Source: Escherichia coli
GTDB lineage: Bacteria > Pseudomonadota > Gammaproteobacteria > Enterobacterales > Enterobacteriaceae
Assembly: GCF_013122565.1 (NCBI RefSeq)
Contig: NZ_CP053258.1
Direction: 5' to 3' (one strand)
Length of the DNA: 64,000 nt
In this document: positions 34,331 through 34,597 of the stretch, piece after piece
Position numbering within the stretch: position 1 is the first letter of the stretch
How the letters are laid out: each line of letters begins with the position of its first letter
The notes under the pieces: model-generated
Seen by the model: only the letters and a program-made list of their open reading frames with translations
What the model was told of the DNA's origin: nothing
Databases searched by the model: none
Position numbers and translations under genes: made by a program

Positions 34331-34334
<4 letters not shown>

Positions 34335-34597
34335 AAGAGTTTTTATTTTTATTTCACTCCACGGTCGGCGTCATACAAACCCGCAAGGCGTTGCAGGCAG
34401 CGGGCATGACTTTTCGCGTCAGCGATATTCCCCGTGATTTACGCGGCGGCTGCGGGTTATGCATTTGGCTGACCTGTCCCCCCGGCGAGGAAATACAATG
34501 GGTGATCCCTGGGCAAACCGAAGCGATATATTGCCAGCAGGGCAGCGACTGGCAGTGCGTGGTGCATTACGATGCAGAAGCGTCAACCAGGCAATAA
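34331..34597 (+). CDS. Small 88-aa protein translationally coupled to yjiL (DUF3343-like, tentative)
   Basis: ATGA overlap with yjiL stop; size and position resemble small carrier-like proteins that accompany dehydratase/activase pairs; identity not confirmed. Confidence 0.5.

Follow-up and report, generated by a model that had tools for sequence, protein, structure and literature searches.

One of the closest described systems to the one considered here is that of Carboxydothermus hydrogenoformans, whose double-cubane cluster protein DCCP and its partner DCCP-R are homologues of E. coli YjiM and YjiL (6ENO, 7YYL; PMC7317905, PMC9351452). As described, the C. hydrogenoformans system comprises two components and lacks a DUF3343 partner. 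The N-terminal channel-closing helices are absent from YjiM, which is classed as 'class II'. A survey in 2022 recorded no known connection of double-cubane proteins with selenium metabolism. DUF3343, now Pfam PF11823 (Se_S_carrier), is a family of small (about 80-100 aa), single-domain proteins with one highly conserved Cys and a genomic linkage to activase and HGD-type genes. Its members have been proposed to act as Se/S trafficking chaperones using this one highly conserved Cys (Lin et al., 2015; PMC5322559). In the STRING table of the same study, the partners of a Slackia DUF3343 protein include a "CoA-substrate-specific enzyme activase" and "2-hydroxyglutaryl-CoA dehydratase subunits" (PMC5322559). 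The TusA and YedF (SirA-like) carriers are likewise small proteins with a single Cys; they are found in S/Se trafficking contexts, often beside DUF3343 genes, and the persulfide or perselenide relay on their Cys is the same chemistry that we propose below for the DUF3343 protein of E. coli, YtiA. Among the papers examined that use the name 'ytiA', almost all concern an unrelated zinc-regulated paralogue of ribosomal protein L31 and we found none on the E. coli gene, and the papers that mention yjiL or yjiM gave no functional data on the third gene. We likewise found no published test of S or Se binding or transfer on the conserved Cys of a DUF3343 protein.

The locus under study lies in a 64-kb stretch of E. 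coli DNA (the window), and consists of the C. hydrogenoformans system plus one gene. The first gene of the module, yjiM (32406-33557, + strand; RefSeq-type start MSLVTDL), encodes a double-cubane [8Fe-9S] cluster reductase. YjiM matches Pfam HGD-D (E=7e-122) and scores 532 bits, against a cut-off of 350, with NCBIfam NF040772, "double-cubane-cluster-containing anaerobic reductase"; the name dehydratase, used for yjiM in the first-pass annotation, is therefore outdated. Of solved structures, the nearest to YjiM is that of the C. hydrogenoformans DCCP (6ENO, E=6e-75). The second gene, yjiL (33561-34334, + strand), encodes an ATP-dependent activator (archerase-type ATPase) of the BcrAD/BadFG family, with matches to PF01869 (E=1.5e-76) and to TIGR00241, acyl-CoA dehydratase activase (362 bits, cut-off 125). 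An NF040772 reductase accompanied by a TIGR00241 activase defines the double-cubane reductase system, and YjiM and YjiL together make up such a system. The third gene, ytiA (34331-34597, + strand), encodes an 88-aa DUF3343 or 'putative Se/S carrier' protein. Called mechanically, the open reading frames of yjiM and yjiL start at GTG codons (32385 and 33561), 21 and 6 nt upstream of the RefSeq starts, which give proteins of 383 aa for YjiM and 255 aa for YjiL. The RefSeq start of yjiL leaves only 9 nt after yjiM, so that yjiM, yjiL and ytiA form a single tightly packed unit.

The ytiA frame, read from the sequence, extends over 88 codons from ATG at 34331-34333 to TAA at 34595-34597. The TGA stop of yjiL at 34332-34334 overlaps the ytiA ATG in the context ccaATGAaag, and the two codons form an ATGA overlap at 34331-34334 (+ strand). 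Both the 88-aa frame and its overlap with the yjiL stop had been reported in the first-pass annotation, and the sequence bears them out. The translational coupling to yjiL suggested there is sound as a matter of placement: the gene is real, and its start overlaps the yjiL stop. The overlap makes co-transcription of ytiA with yjiL very probable, and ytiA closes a compact module, in third place after yjiM and yjiL. A promoter and terminator scan found no intrinsic terminator on the + strand 3' of ytiA and nothing that exceeded shuffle expectation, and an Rfam search of 32200-35000 returned no RNA family. A short hairpin (CAACCGGATAATTGGCTG) occurs at 34613-34630, 16 nt past the ytiA stop; its score is terminator-like on the minus strand only.

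By itself an 88-codon frame is unremarkable, since many spurious ORFs of like size are present in the same 9-kb stretch. The ytiA frame is identified as a real gene by its Pfam match, by being the only profile match in the window, by orthologues in many genera and by a dN/dS of 0.09-0.15 over codons 1-70. The Pfam search, which the first-pass annotation had named as a check, gave a match to PF11823 of 49.2 bits (gathering cut-off 25, E=3.6e-13), with YtiA residues 4-59 aligned to profile positions 2-57 of 69. Among the 751 stop-free segments of the window, ytiA is the sole match to the DUF3343 profile even at E<=10. No NCBIfam model matches YtiA, and neither a ferredoxin, a thioredoxin nor any other Pfam family besides PF11823 matches it at E<=1. 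Searches of the PDB with the YtiA sequence and with the family profile found no solved relative. The identity of ytiA and its membership of the operon are close to certain.

The gene is already known and annotated. Megablast finds ytiA-matching DNA in 5385 of 5426 complete E. coli genomes, and a CDS is annotated under the match in all 60 of the RefSeq E. coli records listed, as a "DUF3343 domain-containing protein" or a "putative Se/S carrier protein", with the gene name ytiA in K-12-type genomes. The suspicion that the ORF was under-annotated has thus to be dropped. Placement directly after yjiL, overlapping stop and start codons and high identity assign the window gene to the E. coli ytiA orthologue group. 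Its DNA matches the CDS of O145 and that of O157:H7 (WP_000657677.1) at 100% identity, and this 88-aa allele is common to about 644 genomes, O157:H7 and O145 among them. The K-12 product (WP_000657675.1) has 85 aa. K-12 ytiA has the same place after yjiL, the same ATGA overlap and the same Pfam domain, with 96% DNA identity to the window gene across nt 1-211 and two amino acid changes in codons 1-70. It differs from the window gene in its last 15-18 residues, which are DGVWRCIAHYGVSPR in K-12 and GSDWQCVVHYDAEASTRQ in the window.

The two parts of the gene, the domain and the tail, have evolved differently. Nei-Gojobori estimates were made on codon alignments with the window as reference. Against a divergent E. 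coli, dN/dS is 0.038 for yjiM, 0.084 for yjiL and 0.293 for the whole of ytiA, and falls to 0.119 for ytiA codons 1-70. Against Citrobacter it is 0.046 for yjiM, not estimable for yjiL, 0.122 for the whole of ytiA and 0.105 for codons 1-70. Over these codons the values are 0.09-0.15 in comparisons with other E. coli, Citrobacter, Atlantibacter and Superficieibacter; Klebsiella, Atlantibacter and Superficieibacter together span 0.12-0.22, the upper value being that for Klebsiella. Codons 1-70 are under purifying selection, with dN/dS of about 0.1. The variable C-terminal tail (codons 71-88 and the stop; 34541-34597, + strand) is not conserved, and its last 18 codons evolve almost neutrally. Two tail alleles, of 88 and 85 aa, occur. 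Megablast matches to most E. coli genomes end at ytiA nt 211 (codon 70). Relative to K-12, pS is about 0.08-0.13 across yjiM, yjiL and ytiA codons 1-70 (0.13 in these last), and 0.71 in codons 71-88. The end of homology at nt 211 and the jump in pS place the junction of the espX6-bearing segment, in the region 34541-34900, inside the 3' tail of ytiA. The gene 3' of ytiA is the espX6 effector gene in the window, as in O145 and O157:H7, and yjiK in K-12; espX6 at this position marks the window as EHEC-type E. coli. An AT-rich spacer of 300 bp precedes espX6 (34909-37071), a T3SS effector pentapeptide-repeat gene with the internal low-complexity repeats KDKDKD, ATSATS and PETPQI.

YtiA diverges much faster than its partner proteins. 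Orthologues of 54-93% identity are found in Escherichia, Citrobacter, Klebsiella, Raoultella, Kosakonia, Phytobacter and Atlantibacter, and at one locus (L007) YjiM is 82% identical to that of the window while the DUF3343 protein is only 35% identical. A word-indexed search seeded with YjiM recovered only orthologues of at least 86% identity, and a search seeded with 6ENO was then used to build a diverse DCCP alignment. Scanning this alignment against one genome per species yielded 80 loci, nine of them gamma-proteobacterial and 71 not, whose YjiM-type proteins range from 53 to 97% identity; the six-frame ORFs of all 80 were searched with the DUF3343 profile, YjiL and YjiM. The order yjiM-yjiL-DUF3343 is present at all nine gamma-proteobacterial loci of this species-wide scan (Escherichia albertii, E. 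coli, Superficieibacter, Citrobacter, Cedecea, a Proteobacteria MAG, Hafnia and two Aeromonas). Three further loci, from Klebsiella pneumoniae, Atlantibacter hermannii and one other bacterium, carry the order HGD-D, BcrAD_BadFG, Se_S_carrier with a 4-nt overlap; flanking genes differ at each of these three, which indicates that the three genes move as a unit. Conservation downstream of yjiL homologues, the check named in the first-pass annotation, therefore extends to all twelve gamma-proteobacterial loci, and the refutation proposed there fails. The junction has an NTGA overlap in 10 of the 12 gamma-proteobacterial cases examined, and overlaps of 1 nt (TAATG) and 11 nt in the others. The yjiM, yjiL and ytiA genes travel together through Enterobacterales and Aeromonas in varied flanking contexts. 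Genes for YedF, Sec lyase, YedE, SelD and the selenium-associated LysR regulator were sought within 6 kb and found at none of the nine gamma-proteobacterial loci. In this respect E. coli ytiA and its relatives differ from the PF11823 family, since they are not near YedF, Sec lyase or SelD; they differ also in the extra enteric Cys that creates a CxxC.

The window allele of YtiA has five Cys in 88 residues: C41 and C44 (in GGCGLCIW), C49 (in CPPG), C68 and C75. These are the residues and motifs for which the first-pass annotation called the protein Cys-rich, and the description is correct for this allele, but only C41 is conserved across the family. Among 22 orthologues C41 is invariant and C44 nearly so, while C49, C68 and C75 vary. 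Among 31 diverse family members, the only invariant residues are F8, P34, C41 and Y67, and most have S, A, G or T in place of C44; the Hafnia and Aeromonas proteins have lost C44 with the operon kept. C44 is specific to the enteric clade. C41 is invariant as well in 17 DCCP-linked homologues, and those of Firmicutes have in common only the motif PxPRxxxxGCG. In the window this motif corresponds to the conserved loop D32-G42 (DIPRDLRGGCG; 34424-34456, + strand), which contains P34 and C41, both invariant in the family; C41 is encoded by TGC at 34451-34453. With C41 the only invariant Cys, a metal or cluster site built on several Cys is disfavoured. Membership of the CxxC thiol-disulfide oxidoreductases or of the small Fe-S carriers was also considered and rejected, as the family has no conserved Cys pair and no set of three or four Cys ligands.

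An AlphaFold model of YtiA, built on the 31-sequence alignment, has a mean pLDDT of 91 and a pTM of 0.81. The predicted fold is small (about 80 residues) and alpha/beta, with the topology beta-alpha-beta-beta-alpha-beta-beta, in which the conserved loop sits between strands E28-32 and E43-49. The relevant feature is one Cys in this loop, which separates strands 2 and 3, and not a Cys-rich site; it is the highly conserved Cys pointed out by Lin et al. A fold search with YtiA gave no match to a thioredoxin or ferredoxin protein beyond a generic level. Nor is YtiA a TusA/SirA-like sulfur carrier by family, as a sequence match to PF01206 together with a TusA-type fold was not found. A DUF3343 sub-type with CCG in place of GCG was seen at four loci (L041, 2732-2992; L043, 272-541; L069, 3187-3462; L087, 8645-8896). 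The proteins of the first three end in a C-terminal ...YC, and at L041, L069 and L087 the gene is flanked on one side by that of a longer, class-I-like double-cubane protein (419-453 aa) and on the other by that of the activase.

Outside gamma-proteobacteria, the 71 loci, mostly from Clostridia, Lachnospiraceae, Enterococcus and Peptoniphilaceae, all have a YjiM-type DCCP; a DUF3343 gene is present within 6 kb at 13 of them and absent from 58. At eight of the 13 it directly adjoins the DCCP or activase gene, in three orders: DUF-DCCP-activase, DUF-activase-DCCP and class-I-like DCCP-DUF-activase. Since DUF3343 and DCCP adjoin in three distinct arrangements, their link is better read as functional than as inherited. 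The association of the three families reappears in distant phyla, with independent gene arrangements. The chance of such an encounter is estimated as at most about 2% per 12-kb window for a gene with few copies per genome, and we infer that adjacency to DCCP or activase is well above chance. A SclA-like (selenocysteine lyase) desulfurase scoring above the TIGR01977 cut-off is found at eight of the 13 loci with DUF3343 and at two of the 58 without; YedF (TIGR03527) is found at seven and two, and SelD at one and three, respectively. The selenium-associated LysR regulator NF040786 (LysR_Sec_metab) occurs at one of the 13, separate from the SelD locus. DUF3343 genes also lie next to YedE/TusA-type sulfur or selenium transport genes in the absence of any DCCP. 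A Se/S gene neighbourhood is a contextual trait, and is not required for membership of PF11823. Selenium clusters of Firmicutes that include a YjiM-type reductase and activase were seen at L068 (1977-7962), L090 (614-7143), L084 (1718-4960), L045 (2867-7152) and L029 (5983-10028). When the 80 DCCP loci were translated through TGA, no Sec-containing DUF3343 gene was found and the same loci matched.

We suggest, tentatively and at somewhat less than an even chance, that YtiA is a single-cysteine S/Se carrier for YjiM/YjiL. C41 would bear sulfur or selenium in some form, for instance as a persulfide or perselenide, and YtiA would pass this species to, or take it from, the ATP-driven, very low-potential YjiM/YjiL reductase. 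YtiA would thus be a substrate or product shuttle, not an electron carrier. The suggestion draws on the single invariant Cys, the YedE/TusA neighbours of DUF3343 genes that lack a DCCP, the SclA-like, YedF, SelD and LysR_Sec_metab genes at DCCP loci and the proposal of Lin et al. Of the first-pass idea of a small redox or carrier-type accessory protein, the carrier half fits the family name and the published proposal (PMC5322559); the redox half is disfavoured, as C44 is not conserved. Taken whole, the reading of ytiA as a module gene that encodes a single-Cys carrier is evenly balanced in our judgement, a compromise between our near-certainty on the gene and our greater reserve on its role.

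Several other roles could be considered for a small protein so placed. YtiA may be a maturation factor for the double-cubane cluster, either delivering sulfide, such as the additional bridging one in [8Fe-9S], or acting as a chaperone for insertion of the cluster into YjiM. The tight linkage to the DCCP gene in gamma-proteobacteria would suit such a factor, as would the single conserved Cys, which recalls persulfide carriers, and the cysteine-desulfurase-family gene that often adjoins in Firmicutes loci. That desulfurase, however, is SclA-like and is accompanied by YedF, SelD and LysR_Sec_metab, not by Fe-S assembly genes. Moreover, 58 of the 71 non-gamma DCCP loci have no DUF3343 gene within 6 kb, and the presence of DUF3343 with YedE/TusA and no DCCP indicates that the family is not cluster-specific. 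We regard such a maturation role, in which YtiA would have no part in turnover, as unlikely. A similarly small chance attaches to YtiA being a non-catalytic third subunit or regulator that stabilises or gates the YjiM/YjiL complex, with a structural Cys. Overlapping stop and start codons favour coupled, near-equimolar synthesis, and fast divergence outside one loop is often seen in small adaptor subunits. The invariant residues, on the other hand, cluster in an exposed-looking Cys-Gly loop that is preserved across very distant homologues and resembles an active site more than an interface, and this family too occurs where DCCP does not.

The two remaining explanations fare worse. The enteric C41-G-L-C44 has CxxC spacing and the window allele has five Cys, from which one could picture YtiA as a 'small redox protein', a CxxC thiol-disulfide or Fe-S electron mediator feeding the YjiL activator. 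This is very improbable, given the replacement of C44 in most family members, those of the Hafnia and Aeromonas operons included, the variability of C49, C68 and C75 and the failure to match a ferredoxin or thioredoxin in Pfam (E<=1) or, above a generic level, in fold. A chance ORF or a decaying remnant devoid of function would be compatible with the shortness of the gene, its variable and almost neutral tail, the lack of an NCBIfam match and the lack of experimental evidence in the literature. It is the least credible of the explanations and can be set aside for practical purposes: the significant Pfam match, the conservation among orthologues and a dN/dS of about 0.1 over the domain effectively refute it, and both the intact frame from Escherichia to Aeromonas and the confident fold prediction (pLDDT 91) stand against it.

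The YjiM-type reductase and its ATPase could, at a long shot, serve as the low-potential step of bacterial selenium (or sulfane-sulfur) trafficking. In such a scheme DUF3343 proteins such as YtiA would be the carrier presenting Cys-bound Se(0) or S(0), and ATP-driven reduction would yield, for example, selenide for SelD. The scheme is suggested by the occurrence of DCCP, activase and DUF3343 inside clusters of several Firmicutes with the SclA-like lyase, YedF, SelD and LysR_Sec_metab. Relative to C. hydrogenoformans, YtiA would be an undescribed third component of the double-cubane reductase system.

The ytiA gene adds little in itself, as it is annotated already and a role for its family has already been proposed. 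Its value is as a pointer to the function of YjiM/YjiL. The one accessory gene that always accompanies yjiML in enteric bacteria is a member of a family whose genome context ties it to S/Se trafficking, and this genomic hint links the double-cubane system of E. coli to sulfur and selenium trafficking. The selenium scheme, if true, would give E. coli YjiML-YtiA a testable physiological role.
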